From contig JAJCZB010000041.1 in NCBI GenBank assembly GCA_029262595.1, forward strand, positions 22,123 to 86,122: DNA of 64,000 bases, in the 5' to 3' direction. The notes under the pieces were generated by a model. It did no database searches. It worked only from the letters and a program-made list of their open reading frames with translations, and was not told the origin of the DNA. Of this stretch, positions 14,018 to 17,839 are shown piece after piece. Source of the stretch: Candidatus Babelota bacterium. GTDB taxonomy: Bacteria > Babelota > Babeliae > Babelales > Vermiphilaceae. Position numbers and translations under genes: made by a program. Within the stretch, counting starts at the first letter, position 1; each line of letters starts with the position of its first letter.

Positions 14018-17000
14018 CTAAGCTAAAACTTTTTCCTGCCTATCCAAACCAATCTCATTCATCTCTCTCTCAGATTTTAACGCTTTAATAAAAGTAAATC
14101 GATCTTTTGATTCCACATCTATCATATAAAAGCCCAATTTTCTCAGAAGCTCTTTAAACTGCTCAATGTCTTTTATTCTAGAGGTCGGCTCAGCTAGCCA
14201 TAGCCAGCCATCCAATTTAAGACAGCGTTTTGCTTCTTTGAGATAATCAACAAAATTTGTGCCCATCAAAGACAACGAAAATATTGCAGCCCCTATCGAC
14301 TCATTCTCCAAAGGCACTTGAGACATATCGCATGCAATTACGCTGTTATTGATAGCAACATGGTCAAATGAATAAATTTTGTTTTTAAGCTCTTGTGCCA
14401 GTAAAGCCTCTCCGCATCCAAAATCACCAATCACTAAATCTGGCCTTGTTTTGCACCACTTTAATGCTTCATGATTTGGGATCACTGGCCATGATTCTCT
14501 TGTTGCTCTGAATGAAGCATGGTAGTCATGCCACTCTTCAGGACTCTTTAAAAAACGCTTATGCGTATCCTGGCTACTGTCATTATTTATTTCCTGATTC
14601 ATTCTCGATAAATCGCCAATCCTCCTAAGAGGCGGTTGTTGAAAATCAGCAGATAACTCCAAAGCTATCTTTGACCGCTCTACCTCATGGATGCCACTAT
14701 TGGCTAATCGATCAAACCACTTCATACTATCTTTATGCGCTAGAGCAGCACTTCTCAAATGACCTTCGGGAATTACTCCATCGACTGCAGCATCAGCTAT
14801 GCTCTTTTTAAATTCTATTCGTTTCCATCTCGACTCACACCACGACCATCGCTCGCCATTAATTTCTGCAAACGTAAGGGGGACAATAATATCAACATTA
14901 TCTTTGATTTGACCTTGACGATAAATTCTACCGATTAGTTGTTTATACTCTGCATGCGTCCACGGCAAGCAATTAATTATTAATCGATTGCATACTTTTT
15001 GCAGACCATCAACACCCGTCCCTATACAACTCGTAGCAATTAGGATATCAACATCCCCATTGATAAATTTATCCAATCCATCTTTAGTACTTCCATTGAA
15101 TAGAGAGGCACTCCATCCTTTTTGCACAATAGCCTCTTGAAGAGCTATTTCTATTCCCTCTCTATAATGCGTATACACTATAGTCTTTGGTCGAAGTTGA
15201 TCCAAAATAAATGGCAATTTTGCCCGCGTAAGAATCCCTTCTAATTCAACCCAAGATTTGTGTTCCTTGATTTCATCAAACTGATCACTACAATCAATGA
15301 GCTCTTTTTTTAAATTGAACTGCATCTTATAATCCGGCAAATATCGAATTCCATGACTCACAAATTTCTTATACAACGCAATACAATTTGAGGGAGTTGC
15401 CAGAGTGTTCAGTTCGTCATGATAGATACCAGTGATAAGCTCTAATAACGTTTTACCCTCAAACAAATTGTTTATGACGGGTGTGGCAGACATTCCAAGA
15501 ATAGATAGGTTTAAATTTTTATCTGATGCCTCTGACAAAAAAGACGCTACAAGAATTTTTCTTTTAGATATTTTTTGCTGCACACGCTGCTTTGATTGGT
15601 GAATTTCATCAATTACAATGAAATCAATTGCACACTTTTCAATCAGTTTTTTTAACTTACTTTCTGAAGTAGACTGCTGAAAAAACTCATAATTTAAAAT
15701 AAGATATTTATTTTTTGCATCATCCGTAGTAATTCGTAAAATGGACTCTTTCGTATAAATCACACTATCAGAATAAGATCCTTTAATCTGACTTCTCCAA
15801 GTACCAATCACATTATTAGGACAACAAATAACAGTCAATTTTGAATCAATTACTCTGCTAGCCAAAATTGCGGATAAAGTTTTTCCCGCCCCAGTTCCAG
15901 ACCAATTACCAAATCTTTTTCTAGTCTTGATCTGAGAAGCAACATAGCGCTGCATAAGACCAAGTTCTTCTTTCCTTGGAAGCAATCCTGGTGGATTCTC
16001 ATTGTAACCCTCAGGAATCTTTAAATTCTTAGCACTATGATATCCATCTAAAAATAATTTTTTAACTTCCCTTGGGTATTCGCCTTCGCCTTGATATTGC
16101 TCAAGTTGCAATTGCGCTTCCTTTTCATTTCGAAAAGTATGACGCCAAATTTTTGCTACCGCTGACTTAATCAAAAAATCAACAGTTTCTGCATCAGCAC
16201 TCGCCACTATTTTGCTATCAATTGATTCGAGAATATCTTTAGTCTGAACGATTGGAAGATCTGATTCGTCAAGCTTAACTTCATTCTCCGAAAGAATACC
16301 TATCTCATCCTCATTATTGATCAACTGGTCTTTTTGTAACTCAATTAATTCAGTAAATTTTTGAGGATCACCCACAGCTTCAATCAAATCGTCTTTAGGC
16401 AATTTTCCCGAAAGAAAATTTTTAATAAAAGAAGATCCCTTACCCGTCGAATTTAGCAATCCATTCTGTTGAAATATTGCATATAGTTCTACAGGAGAAA
16501 GAGTATTTAAATAAGGCAGAAGAGAAAGAATAAACCTCCGTATCTTTTCAACTGTCCACCCAGAATTACAAAAGGGACAGCCTGTACCGGTAGCCCTCGC
16601 ACAGACAGCAGCTTTCCATATATGCTCTACATCCTTAGCACACGCCCACCATACTCTTTTTCCACTTCCTACCACAACATCAAATGGAGTCAATTTGCCA
16701 TTTTTCGATGGATGCCATTCCTTAGCAAGGTTCGGTTTTAGGGTTGCTAAACAATTAGATATGTGTACTTGTGATCCCAAGCAAATTGGACAACCTGACC
16801 CACGATAAGCCCTGTTCTTAACAGGGGCCATCCATTCATGGCTATCGTCTTTTAAGCATTGCCACCACACTTTTTTCCCACTCCCTGCAAAAATACCTTT
16901 CGGAGTTATAGAATTTTTTGTTGGATGCCATTCCTTTACGATATTTGGATAAGTTGAAAATAAAGAATTAGATAAAACAATCTTCAATCCCCTACAAATT

Positions 17001-17839
17001 GGACAGCCGTGACCTGAGGCCCTCTTCTGTATATTAGCTTGCCATTCATGATCGGAGCCTTTTGAGCATTTCCACCAAAATTTAGCTTTGCCCCCCCCAA
17101 AAACACCCTCAGGCAATAAGTTCCCATTTTTAATAGGATGCCACTCATTTGCTAAAAATGGATGCTTACTTGATAAAGAATTGGTTACACTTACTCTTTT
17201 TCCATCACAAAACGGACAGCCTGATCCTGCACGGCTACGCTCAACAGCCTTTTGTCTCCATTCATGATCTGGCCCCTTAGAACACTTCCACCAAATATAT
17301 TGATTACTTCCAGCTCTAACCTTGTCTGAAAACAGTCCTTTATTTTTTGTAGGATGCCATTCCTTTAAAAGGCCTAAATGAGTAACTGATAAGGGTGCTT
17401 TATGACATTTTGGGCAACCACGATAAGAGCCATCTTTTCTTATATGAGAAATAATAGAAGCTTTCCACTCATGATCAACATCACATCGCCACCAATAAAG
17501 TCTTTTACTTCTAGATCCAACCACATCCTTTGGAGTTAAAGGAAAATTTTTTTTGTAATGCCATCGCTTAGCTAAAATGGGATGAAGCGTCAACAAACTA
17601 TTGGTTTTAGATAATCGATAATTAATACAAAAAGGACATTTTGAATTAGCCTTTGCACGATAAGCAACAGTATTCTGCCACACATGATCATCAGATACAG
17701 GGCATAACCACCACACATTACGATTAGTGTTTGCGATTAATTTAGATGCGTATAGGTCACCATTCTTAACAGGGTGCCATTGTTTAGCAATATGAGGATG
17801 AGTTTCTATCAATGATTGTTTTTTCGATTGCTTCTTCAT
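14018..17839 (-). CDS. 1273-aa fusion: 6x treble-clef zinc-ribbon repeats + SF2 (DExH, SNF2/DEAD-like) helicase + C-terminal Rrp8-like SAM-dependent methyltransferase
   Basis: Six repeats of WHP.KN...(V)WW.C...H.W......R..G.GCP.C (aa 12-424). Helicase motifs are GTGAGKT (I), CPNNVI (Ia), VIDEIHQSK (II), MSATP (III), ILIATSCIGTGVDG (V) and QLIGRIYRQGQ (VI). Methyltransferase blocks are VIGDFGCGE, ACDMSQVPLENESIGAAIFSLSLMGTN and LKLDGWLWLAEPTSR. Confidence 0.85.
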   Translation of the reverse strand: MKKQSKKQSLIETHPHIAKQWHPVKNGDLYASKLIANTNRNVWWLCPVSDDHVWQNTVAYRAKANSKCPFCINYRLSKTNSLLTLHPILAKRWHYKKNFPLTPKDVVGSRSKRLYWWRCDVDHEWKASIISHIRKDGSYRGCPKCHKAPLSVTHLGLLKEWHPTKNKGLFSDKVRAGSNQYIWWKCSKGPDHEWRQKAVERSRAGSGCPFCDGKRVSVTNSLSSKHPFLANEWHPIKNGNLLPEGVFGGGKAKFWWKCSKGSDHEWQANIQKRASGHGCPICRGLKIVLSNSLFSTYPNIVKEWHPTKNSITPKGIFAGSGKKVWWQCLKDDSHEWMAPVKNRAYRGSGCPICLGSQVHISNCLATLKPNLAKEWHPSKNGKLTPFDVVVGSGKRVWWACAKDVEHIWKAAVCARATGTGCPFCNSGWTVEKIRRFILSLLPYLNTLSPVELYAIFQQNGLLNSTGKGSSFIKNFLSGKLPKDDLIEAVGDPQKFTELIELQKDQLINNEDEIGILSENEVKLDESDLPIVQTKDILESIDSKIVASADAETVDFLIKSAVAKIWRHTFRNEKEAQLQLEQYQGEGEYPREVKKLFLDGYHSAKNLKIPEGYNENPPGLLPRKEELGLMQRYVASQIKTRKRFGNWSGTGAGKTLSAILASRVIDSKLTVICCPNNVIGTWRSQIKGSYSDSVIYTKESILRITTDDAKNKYLILNYEFFQQSTSESKLKKLIEKCAIDFIVIDEIHQSKQRVQQKISKRKILVASFLSEASDKNLNLSILGMSATPVINNLFEGKTLLELITGIYHDELNTLATPSNCIALYKKFVSHGIRYLPDYKMQFNLKKELIDCSDQFDEIKEHKSWVELEGILTRAKLPFILDQLRPKTIVYTHYREGIEIALQEAIVQKGWSASLFNGSTKDGLDKFINGDVDILIATSCIGTGVDGLQKVCNRLIINCLPWTHAEYKQLIGRIYRQGQIKDNVDIIVPLTFAEINGERWSWCESRWKRIEFKKSIADAAVDGVIPEGHLRSAALAHKDSMKWFDRLANSGIHEVERSKIALELSADFQQPPLRRIGDLSRMNQEINNDSSQDTHKRFLKSPEEWHDYHASFRATRESWPVIPNHEALKWCKTRPDLVIGDFGCGEALLAQELKNKIYSFDHVAINNSVIACDMSQVPLENESIGAAIFSLSLMGTNFVDYLKEAKRCLKLDGWLWLAEPTSRIKDIEQFKELLRKLGFYMIDVESKDRFTFIKALKSEREMNEIGLDRQEKVLA
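14075..14557 (-). other. Rrp8-like (Methyltransf_8-type) class I methyltransferase domain of the fusion protein (aa ~1095-1255)
   Basis: Block-by-block resemblance to eukaryotic Rrp8/nucleomethylin as I remember it: YH..F......WP, DFGCG, CDM.QVPLE.ES, F.LSLMGTN, EA.R.LK..G.L..AE..SR, LGF. No (D/N/S)PP(Y/F/W) DNA amino-methyltransferase motif. Confidence 0.65.
14885..15967 (-). other. SF2 helicase core domain of the fusion protein (aa ~625-985)
   Basis: Walker A GTGAGKT at aa 648-654, DEIH at aa 744-747, SAT at aa 784-786, GRIYRQGQ at aa 970-977. Confidence 0.8.
16568..17806 (-). repeat. Six tandem, diverged ~68-72-codon zinc-ribbon repeat units inside the fusion gene
   Basis: The conserved Trp of the W(H)P.KN motif falls at aa 21, 93, 161, 233, 304 and 375. 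Each unit ends in a C-P-x-C knuckle, with the H.W element 16-20 residues (about 18) before it. Confidence 0.8.

Follow-up and report, generated by a model that had tools for sequence, protein, structure and literature searches.

The stretch of DNA considered here (hereafter, the window) comprises 64,000 nucleotides of a contig from a Candidatus Babelota bacterium (JAJCZB010000041.1, positions 22,123 to 86,122), and the subject of this analysis is a single complete gene on its reverse strand, present as an intact open reading frame (ORF) that starts with ATG. The gene is real, and its 1273-residue product, identical to a protein already in the NCBI database, was confirmed to be a three-part fusion of zinc fingers, an ATPase motor, and an S-adenosylmethionine (SAM)-dependent methyltransferase resembling the eukaryotic enzyme Rrp8 (Table 1). 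A preliminary description of the window had reported the ORF, quoted a C-terminal sequence spanning residues 1095-1255 (nt 14075-14557), and described a superfamily 2 (SF2) motor with complete motifs, covalently linked together with a zinc-finger array to the methyltransferase; the quoted sequence is present in the translation, the coordinates agree, and the linkage was verified both in the translation and by Pfam. We know of no characterised enzyme that combines a zinc-finger array, an SF2 ATPase, and an Rrp8-type methyltransferase.

Searching the full-length protein against Pfam returned DUF4379 in six stretches (1.1e-99), ResIII (4e-9), Helicase_C (2e-10), and Methyltransf_8 (1.7e-43). Each of the six DUF4379 (PF14311; 327 bits) treble-clef units carries a CHCC core, the cysteine, histidine, and tryptophan residues of which are invariant across 30 homologues, and the array was modelled by AlphaFold2 (AF2) with a predicted local distance difference test (pLDDT) score of 90.3. 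Across the family, the number of repeats ranges from 0 to 13 with a mode of 6 and tracks protein length (r = 0.81), as would be expected of a modular recognition array. The remainder of the protein (aa 430-1273) was modelled with a pLDDT of 81.9 and a predicted template modelling score (pTM) of 0.68. Within it, the helical domain that follows the fingers was matched by no Pfam family; it is conserved in homologue alignments and scores mostly 70-95 except for a disordered loop at model residues 77-98. The connector between motor and methyltransferase falls below a pLDDT of 50 at model residues 597-621 and 637-645, and contains conserved residues, including a W998-P1024 block, in the alignment of 30 homologues.

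In the motor, SF2 motifs I, II, III, and VI are intact, and both ResIII and Helicase_C exceed their Pfam thresholds. Ranks 3 to 44 of the Foldseek comparison with the PDB were all occupied by Swi2/Snf2 proteins (Mot1, CSB, SMARCAD1, Ino80, ISWI, Sth1, Chd1, ALC1, and Rad54), Ino80 matching the AF2 model with a target-normalised template modelling score (TMt) of 0.69 and a root-mean-square deviation (RMSD) of 4.0; an XPB-type TFIIH chain followed at rank 45 and RapA at rank 50, a ranking that the plentiful Snf2 entries in the PDB may inflate. The best Foldseek matches in the viral library BFVD were phage SNF2/HepA helicases. Among family models, those scoring best on the motor were DISARM DrmD and other DNA-defence helicases, all far under their thresholds. 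Judged from the predicted fold, the motor is probably Snf2-like, that is, it resembles double-stranded DNA (dsDNA) translocases and not RNA helicases, so that its predicted activity would be dsDNA translocation.

Table 1. Features of the gene, its product, and its immediate surroundings (all on the reverse strand; nt, position in the window; aa, residue of the product).
Feature	nt	aa	Strand	Basis or remark
Complete gene	14018..17839	1-1273	-	1273 aa + stop; contains the domains listed below
Six DUF4379 treble-clef zinc fingers	16556..17839	1-428	-	Pfam, homologue alignment, AF2 model
Six CHCC cores		43-71, 116-145, 183-211, 255-282, 325-353, 397-424	-	Pattern W-W-x-C...H-x-W...C-P-x-C
Mostly helical domain between fingers and motor	15980..16555	429-620	-	Alignments, AF2 model
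SF2 ATPase motor, structurally Snf2-like	14840..15979	621-1000	-	Pfam, Foldseek
Walker A GTGAGKT	15878-15898	648-654	-	Invariant columns, 30 homologues
DEIH	15599-15610	744-747	-	Invariant columns, 30 homologues
SATP	15479-15490	784-787	-	Invariant columns, 30 homologues
Motif VI QLIGRIYRQGQ	14909-14941	967-977	-	Invariant columns, 30 homologues
Connector between motor and methyltransferase	14603..14839	1001-1079	-	Alignment, AF2 model; partly low-confidence
Methyltransf_8/Rrp8-like class I SAM methyltransferase domain	14066..14602	1080-1258	-	Pfam, PDB, Foldseek
SAM motif DFGCG	14411-14425	1139-1143	-	Invariant in 30 and in 50 homologues
LSLMGTN	14255-14275		-	Methyltransferase domain
264-aa ORF	13215..14009		-	PADLOC candidate PDC-S32, 3.8e-10; starts 8 nt downstream of the gene
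tRNA-Glu	19104-19181		-	ARAGORN, Rfam; ~1.3 kb upstream of the gene
tRNA-Lys	19287-19362		-	ARAGORN, Rfam; upstream of the gene

The methyltransferase domain and eukaryotic Rrp8

The C-terminal domain had been proposed to be specifically of the Methyltransf_8/Rrp8 type, and Pfam, the PDB sequence match, and structural superposition agree on this assignment. PF05148 scored 149.4 bits over the full protein and 154.1 bits over the C-terminal 194 residues alone (curated cut-off 27), far above the generic families Methyltransf_11, Methyltransf_25, and Methyltransf_23, which reached 25.4, 17.4, and 15.8 bits, respectively, on the same 194 residues. Human RRP8/nucleomethylin (2ZFU) was the sole PDB sequence match of the protein (phmmer E = 3.8e-36; E = 1.1e-50 with the family profile), the two methyltransferase domains sharing 40% local identity (67/167). 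The human structure was also the first Foldseek match of the AF2 model (2zfu_B, E = 4e-17), on which the predicted domain superposes with a TMt of 0.88 and an RMSD of 1.7 Å over 199 columns.

For comparison with the eukaryotic family, 65 domains were aligned, consisting of 23 eukaryotic Rrp8 sequences (animal, plant, oomycete, brown-algal, and fungal, collected with the human domain as query), 41 prokaryotic or phage sequences, and that of the window. At 26 positions, the residue is at least 90% conserved and identical in the eukaryotic Rrp8 and the prokaryotic and phage domains, fixed differences between the two groups being found at three positions only. The window domain is 33-41% identical to its eukaryotic counterparts and 40-65% identical to other prokaryotic ones, the human domain being 47-68% identical to other eukaryotic Rrp8. 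In a neighbour-joining tree of these domains (190 columns, 200 bootstraps; distance-based and unrooted), the eukaryotic sequences split from all prokaryotic and phage sequences in 200/200 bootstraps, with mean tree distances of 0.76 within eukaryotes, 0.90 within non-eukaryotes, and 1.36 between the groups; the diversity of Methyltransf_8 domains on the non-eukaryotic side is thus at least as great as that on the eukaryotic side. The window domain groups with those of Dependentiae and Babeliales, then with those of Berkiella, Chlamydiae, and Verrucomicrobiae, while the phage domains form their own clade and the Heimdallarchaeota sequence lies among the bacterial ones.

Because eukaryotic Rrp8 forms a separate clade with full bootstrap support, the methyltransferase domain of the window appears, from these sequences, to be a sister lineage of Rrp8 and not a recent eukaryotic import. 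A recent eukaryote-to-bacterium transfer was rejected on the position of the window domain, which lies deep inside the prokaryotic clade and does not nest within eukaryotic Rrp8. As an observation in its own right, a stand-alone Methyltransf_8 ORF of 134 residues (107 bits) was found at positions 8067-8471 of locus L100, on an 83-kb viral contig (IMGVR_UViG_3300033067_002106). Being the only motor-less prokaryotic or phage version seen, it clusters with the phage fusion proteins in the tree and is among the non-eukaryotic sequences nearest to eukaryotic Rrp8.

The presence of Mot1 and RapA among the structural matches of the motor brings to mind another role for the protein, that of a Snf2-type remodeller acting on a protein-DNA complex in the manner of those two ATPases, its Rrp8-like domain methylating a protein or serving as a SAM sensor or regulator. 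Snf2 ATPases typically displace proteins from DNA, and human nucleomethylin offers a precedent that suits this idea, its methyltransferase-like domain having initially been reported as a module that binds SAM in the silencing of ribosomal DNA; the lack of a demonstrated substrate in the family suits it as well. Such a role is nevertheless improbable, given that nothing in the gene neighbourhoods indicates a specific protein target and that the full Rrp8 core, beyond the SAM-binding residues, is conserved in prokaryotes, phages, and eukaryotes, which argues for retained catalysis on a similar substrate.

Distribution and genomic surroundings of the family

With the full-length protein as query, 2290 proteins were matched, and the same three-part architecture was found in more than 100 protein clusters, including ones from cyanobacteria, Thermoplasmata, a Heimdallarchaeota metagenome-assembled genome (MAG), Planctomycetota, and Chloroflexota. 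A profile-guided scan of 185,579 species-representative genomes, the window's own species not being among them, yielded 312 stretches encoding relatives from more than 12 phyla, which include Chlamydiota, Dependentiae/Babeliales, Berkiella, Verrucomicrobiota, Planctomycetota, Cyanobacteriota, Myxococcota, Chloroflexota, Acidobacteriota, Gemmatimonadota, and archaea; complete genomes carrying the gene include those of Sorangium and Novipirellula, with NZ_CP150355.1, NZ_CP197418.1, and NC_019733.1 among the complete records. Cultivable bearers of homologues include Crinalium epipsammum PCC 9333 (WP_015179950.1, plasmid-borne), Sorangium sp. So ce1000, and Novipirellula sp. SH528. An alignment-based scan was needed to find these relatives, as the scan of reference genomes with the single protein gave no match. 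A search of 1.84 billion representative proteins with the methyltransferase domain returned 1,816 matches at E <= 1e-10, long C-terminal fusions making up a large share of the best 150. The question of whether the architecture recurs is thereby answered by more than 100 clusters and some 300 genome loci, and the earlier implication that the fusion is peculiar to this genome or to intracellular bacteria does not hold, its bearers including free-living cyanobacteria, Myxococcota, Planctomycetota, Chloroflexota, Acidobacteriota, and archaea. A possible variant is seen in a JGI homologue of 1085 residues (P0101; 51% identity over 83% of the query), in which DUF4379 and helicase domains are accompanied in the precomputed Pfam assignments by PF08543 (phosphomethylpyrimidine kinase) and PF24441, with no PF05148; the methyltransferase may here have been replaced by another enzyme. 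No account of this family was found in the searchable literature, subscription-only papers being outside its coverage.

The nearest homologues of the window protein (53-57% identity) belong to Dependentiae, Simkaniaceae, Parachlamydiaceae, Babeliales, and Berkiella, and its subclade draws together bacteria from unrelated phyla that are associated with amoebae (Dependentiae/Babeliales, Chlamydiota, Berkiella, and Verrucomicrobiae), a pattern that, on sequence evidence, fits horizontal exchange among co-resident intracellular bacteria. Of the gene flow among eukaryotic hosts, large DNA viruses, and intracellular bacteria suggested in the preliminary description, it is this exchange among amoeba-associated bacteria that survives, a recent eukaryotic source and giant viruses both being set aside. 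The same homologues, the source organism being probably a Babeliales/Dependentiae symbiont, and the 40% identity of the domain to human RRP8 would also suit a eukaryote-derived effector, recently gained from a protist host and secreted to methylate host ribosomal RNA (rRNA) or chromatin, like the 'eukaryotic-like' effectors of Legionella. This account is scarcely credible, and a recently acquired eukaryotic effector is essentially excluded by the separate eukaryotic clade, by the commonness of the architecture in free-living bacteria, archaea, and phages, and by the eukaryotic proteins matched with the human domain as query, which were all Rrp8-only (124-291 aa) with no fused architecture among them.

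Full-length copies were also found on three plasmids, labelled only as 'zinc-ribbon domain-containing protein', and relatives were met in viral sequence. In 50,697 GenBank phage records there was no full-length copy, the matches being DUF4379 fragments only, and IMG/VR yielded 18 loci, whose contigs span 9-501 kb and have a GC content of 25-37%; one is the 134-aa methyltransferase-only ORF, and in another the match is limited to the part preceding the motor. The viral copies are 30-37% identical over motor and methyltransferase, and retain the motor and Methyltransf_8 (100-135 bits) with varying N-terminal modules (DUF4379, DUF723, INT_rpt, and other zinc ribbons). Flanked by HNH and homing endonucleases, DNA ligase, QueC, RNA ligase, and Tpt1 with strong PHROG matches, the contigs look like those of large phages and not of nucleocytoplasmic giant viruses. 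The large DNA viruses invoked earlier are hence replaced by large phages as the viral relatives, and a giant-virus origin was discarded on these phage-type flanks and on the top BFVD matches, which contained no giant-virus protein of this architecture. Overall, the gene of the window belongs to an uncharacterised family that is widespread among bacteria, archaea, and large phages and moves horizontally.

The zinc-finger module also circulates widely without motor or methyltransferase: two family matches (P0013, 1870 aa; P0120, 1325 aa) apparently consist of DUF4379 repeats only, and DUF4379 arrays were found in 152 plasmid records, including those of Bacillus, Rhodococcus, Piscirickettsia, and Candidatus Paracaedimonas, one such plasmid being from an Acanthamoeba symbiont.

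The neighbourhoods of the family were compared by clustering all ORFs of 80 genome loci. There is no universal neighbour among them, the largest neighbour cluster occurring in 8/80, and the genes adjoining the window copy are common to none of the 80. A recurrent partner was encountered in Myxococcota, where an MmeI-like Type IIG restriction-modification gene lies upstream on the same strand in 12 of the 80 loci, all of them from this phylum, the two genes being separated by 5-13 nt or overlapping by 4 nt in ten loci and lying ~1.5 kb apart in another (L066). The partner is recognised by REase_MTase_IIG (4e-238) and by MmeI_N (in 9/10), MmeI_hel, MmeI_Mtase, and MmeI_TRD, and it also matches the DrmMI and PglX models; every remaining flanking ORF occurs at one locus only. 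With median pairwise identities of 67% for the motor-methyltransferase and 60% for the MmeI-like protein, the two have diverged in parallel, which points to a mobile, co-evolving two-gene module and not to recent shared ancestry. In a Myxococcales MAG (JANNHJ010000245.1; locus L077, positions 5217-11756), a single ORF of 2179 residues joins both genes in the order MmeI_N, MmeI_hel, MmeI_Mtase, DUF4379, Helicase_C, and Methyltransf_8; this Rosetta-stone fusion, seen on a single MAG contig, could be genuine or an artefact of assembly or frameshift. Pairing and fusion together tie the family to a DNA-acting enzyme and are the strongest pointer to its function. MmeI-like methylases have been found recurrently paired with Snf2-like ATPases in DISARM and BREX systems (PMC11529989).

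Elsewhere, immediate neighbours with defence-related assignments were single instances (Dsr1/SIR2, a Type I restriction endonuclease, DarG, SspA/DndA, PDC-S39, and PDC-S11), accompanied by two integrases. The Simkaniaceae copy (L001/L003) sits behind a transfer-messenger RNA (tmRNA) gene, an integrase, and a Toprim/AAA_25 primase, and transfer RNA (tRNA) or tmRNA genes lie within ~3 kb upstream in ~10 of 60 related loci, by rough estimate a several-fold excess over random placement. The flanks of the phage copies contain RNA-related genes (Tpt1, T4-type RNA ligase, PolyA_pol head domain, RNB, MnmA, S1-domain protein, and deoxyhypusine synthase), other neighbours seen being a deoxynucleoside monophosphate (dNMP) kinase and an IS1595 transposase; there is no consistent neighbour, and no RNA-related gene recurs consistently. 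In one such contig (L085; IMGVR_UViG_3300033049_000020), the helicase-methyltransferase gene is flanked by a complete MnmA-like gene (4542-5618) and a truncated second copy (10576-11232), the latter comprising the C-terminal two thirds, 50% identical, and overlapping the end of the helicase-methyltransferase gene by 17 nt, an arrangement of tRNA 2-thiouridylase copies reminiscent of cassette insertion or replacement. Deoxyhypusine synthase genes (~1e-40), unusual in phage, lie directly downstream of the phage gene in two others (L087, 11923-12891; L090, 6374-7345).

In the window itself, the 264-aa ORF following the gene is probably co-transcribed with it; no Pfam family was matched to this ORF, which is not common to any of the 80 related loci. 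Upstream, ~775 nt (17840-18615), an unusually long gap for an otherwise compact genome, hold no credible ORF and no Rfam match at the gathering threshold, at which the whole window yielded nothing beyond three tRNAs. Beyond this gap and directly 3' of tRNA-Glu, a truncated Hsp70/DnaK fragment (18619-19071, reverse strand; E = 7.7e-24 to HSPA2 and 5e-23 to DnaK) retains residues ~450-600 (substrate-binding domain and lid) and lacks the N-terminal ~450, a sign that the DNA here may have been rearranged or have received an insertion in the past; a listed ORF at 18616-19368 is an artefact running through both tRNA genes. The GC fraction drops to 0.32-0.36 at 9000-14000, compared with ~0.40 elsewhere, the dip ending at the 3' end of the gene. 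This low-GC stretch holds several ORFs without family assignment, including one of 411 residues (11069-12304, reverse strand) with a weak CoiA_N/DUF7828 zinc-finger N-terminus (3.8e-5, under threshold) and, by eye, a possible PD-(D/E)XK-like motif, such that it could be a nuclease; a 435-aa member of its 90%-identity cluster was found on a short Logan contig. Further away, the 904-aa product of 24136-26850, which has a TamB domain, shares 64% identity with a protein of Candidatus Babeliales, the basis for placing the source organism in Babeliales/Dependentiae. Neither an integrase nor convincing att-type direct repeats bounding an island were found in the window, and a scan for promoters and terminators gave counts at chance level.

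Candidate substrates and biological roles

The explanation tentatively favoured here, at somewhat short of an even chance, is that of a stand-alone, horizontally mobile methyltransferase that tracks along DNA and takes part in conflicts of the restriction-modification type, with cells on one side and mobile elements on the other. The six treble-clef zinc fingers would dock the protein on nucleic acid, the Snf2-type ATPase would follow duplex DNA, or distort it locally, at the expense of ATP, and bases presented by the motor would be methylated by the Rrp8-type domain, adenine being the simplest candidate by analogy with Rrp8. The methyl mark might then label self or confer protection, be it of the host or of the element, on its own or, where Myxococcota are concerned, in concert with the MmeI-type Type IIG enzyme. 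We infer the DNA substrate, the methylation of bases, and the biological role, for which support is drawn from the Snf2-like fold, the patchy distribution, the plasmids, the integrative element, the large-phage contigs, the absence of a universal partner, the defence genes and tRNA genes among the neighbours, the DNA endonucleases that carry DUF4379-type units, the large phage methylases aligning over both modules, and the Type IIG module. A bolder extension, which must be called quite doubtful, would see in the family a new class of DNA modification, with a zinc-finger-guided Snf2 motor moving an Rrp8-type (N1-adenine-type) writer over duplex DNA to lay down a non-canonical mark in immunity or counter-immunity, whether or not a Type IIG partner is present; Rrp8/nucleomethylin, which acts in eukaryotic ribosome biogenesis and rDNA silencing, would have descended from this mobile prokaryote/phage lineage by shedding the motor.

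Several observations weigh against a DNA-directed role. N1-methyladenine in DNA blocks base pairing and would make an odd protective mark. The only characterised relatives of the methyltransferase, Rrp8/nucleomethylin, act on rRNA, and as the core residues are nearly all common to Rrp8, the chemistry may itself be RNA-directed. Likewise, the zinc-finger array finds significant PDB matches only among proteins and assembly factors of the kinetoplastid mitoribosome (6yxx_E2, E = 5.5e-12; mt-SAF33, annotated as a DUF4379 protein, phmmer 2.1e-7), mt-SAF33 contacting immature h22/h23 of 9S rRNA (PMC8784144). For the motor, SNF2-rel_dom (PF00176) reached 23.9 bits, below its cut-off of 24.9, with PF00176 matches being precomputed in many homologues, and the profile matches to the PDB were mixed, with Hel308, XPB, NPH-I, reverse gyrase, DEAD-box, and Snf2 proteins all at 20-28 bits. 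As for genomic context, only one clade shows the Type IIG link, such a gene being absent from the window and from the remaining 68 loci; the defence-gene neighbours were tallied without a genomic background for comparison; and some phage copies adjoin translation-related genes, namely the MnmA fragment, deoxyhypusine synthase (twice), and the S1-domain protein.

Much of this evidence would equally serve an RNA- or ribosome-directed writer, as the preliminary description implied, in which the fingers would anchor the protein to rRNA or a ribosomal particle, the ATPase would remodel RNA or a ribonucleoprotein, and the Rrp8-type domain would add an N1-methyladenosine (m1A)-like mark to rRNA or tRNA, with possible roles as a mobile translation-modifying factor, in phage takeover or translation tuning, or as an abortive-infection effector. 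The closeness to Rrp8 (154 bits, the 2ZFU match, TMt 0.88, 26 common core positions and 3 differing), the mitoribosomal character of all PDB lookalikes of the array, and the RNA-related genes in the flanks of the phage relatives all speak for it. It is a serious rival but considered rather unlikely, as the motor has its structural neighbours among dsDNA translocases and not among DEAD, DEAH, or Ski2 RNA helicases, as the operon and one fusion involve a DNA restriction-modification enzyme, and as none of the RNA-related genes is a consistent neighbour of the phage copies. Moreover, with ~300 loci in 185,579 species genomes and surroundings that vary between them, the gene cannot have a housekeeping role in ribosome biogenesis.

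The zinc-finger array does not settle the substrate. DUF4379, DUF723, and CapR-like units have been read as DNA-binding modules of phage homing endonucleases (PMC12350094), and DUF4379-type units are joined to a restriction endonuclease domain in marseilleviruses (PMC5513546), examples that tell against an RNA target. DUF4379 as a decisive sign of DNA binding was dropped after the mitoribosome matches were found. Since proteins with this module bind DNA in some cases and rRNA in another, it is, by analogy, best regarded as a general nucleic-acid binder.

To our knowledge, Rrp8/nucleomethylin has so far been regarded as an innovation of eukaryotes. The sizeable sister group now seen in bacteria, archaea, and large phages, nearly always joined to an ATP-driven motor, provides a concrete candidate for the evolutionary source of eukaryotic Rrp8, or a sink for it. 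If DNA is methylated, a new methyltransferase family, and possibly a new mark, would be added to restriction-modification biology, and the recurrent two-gene module with MmeI-type enzymes would be explained; if rRNA or tRNA is methylated, the family would represent a mobile, motor-driven translation modifier on phages and genomic islands. Several hundred proteins called only 'zinc-ribbon domain-containing protein' or 'DEAD/DEAH box helicase' could in any event be named more precisely. The value of the window gene is raised by the evolutionary link to a core factor of eukaryotic ribosome biogenesis and by the possible non-canonical DNA mark, and tempered by its belonging, with nothing to set it apart, to a large family that the databases already contain.

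Comparison with known systems

Rrp8, the m1A methyltransferase of 25S/28S rRNA, is a universal eukaryotic ribosome-biogenesis factor of 200-500 residues without motor or zinc fingers, whereas the Methyltransf_8 domain of the present family is always found (except in L100) at the C-terminus of a motor protein of ~1000-1900 residues encoded by a rare accessory gene. With the other DUF4379 proteins, that is, the homing endonucleases, the marseillevirus fusions, and mt-SAF33, the window protein has in common a treble-clef unit of ~60-70 residues repeated as a nucleic-acid-binding module; their effector is a nuclease or absent, in contrast to the motor and methyltransferase found here.

Closer in plan are the Snf2-helicase/DNA-methylase fusions of phages, in which an SF2/Snf2-type motor and a class I methyltransferase are likewise contained in one polypeptide on mobile elements. 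Phage proteins in BFVD labelled 'DNA methylase' or 'Restriction modification methylase Eco57I' align with the window protein over ~900 columns, covering motor and methyltransferase, yet the identity is only 11-13%; these fusions carry Eco57I/N6_Mtase N6-adenine domains in place of Methyltransf_8, and no DUF4379 array. DarB of phage P1 is a comparable motor-methylase case; a DarB-like sequence relationship was unsupported, as no full-length match was present in the GenBank phage records.

In DISARM class 1 (DrmD with DrmMI) and BREX (PglX with BrxH), an MmeI-like methylase likewise stands beside a Snf2-like ATPase, and the motor, through its C-lobe only, has DrmD as its best match in both NCBIfam and PADLOC (33.1 and 28.6 bits, where the cut-offs are 610 and 950). 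In the window and the 80 loci, no conserved DrmA/B/C, PglZ, or BrxL was found nearby. The Myxococcota module differs further in that the partner is a full Type IIG enzyme, including the nuclease-domain model, and in that the ATPase bears a second, unrelated methyltransferase. Membership of a known defence system was dismissed, PADLOC-DB v2 returning only partial helicase-lobe matches of <=33 bits (PbeA, DrmD, HmaA, BrxH, and DpdF).

ATP-driven dsDNA translocation coupled to DNA methylation within one enzyme or complex is established for Type ISP and Type I restriction-modification (e.g. LlaGI; PMC3874165). No nuclease, N6_Mtase, Eco57I, or target recognition domain (TRD) was found by Pfam in the window protein, which differs in this from the Type ISP, I, and IIG enzymes; where Type ISP and Type I enzymes recognise DNA by the TRD, the window protein would use its zinc-finger array, and the methyltransferase family is a different one. 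With these restriction-modification enzymes and the phage Snf2/methylase fusions as precedents, the initial view of a translocase-coupled methyltransferase as mechanistically new was overstated: motor-coupled methyltransferases are a known kind, and what is new is the methyltransferase family, the zinc-finger array, and the link to Rrp8.

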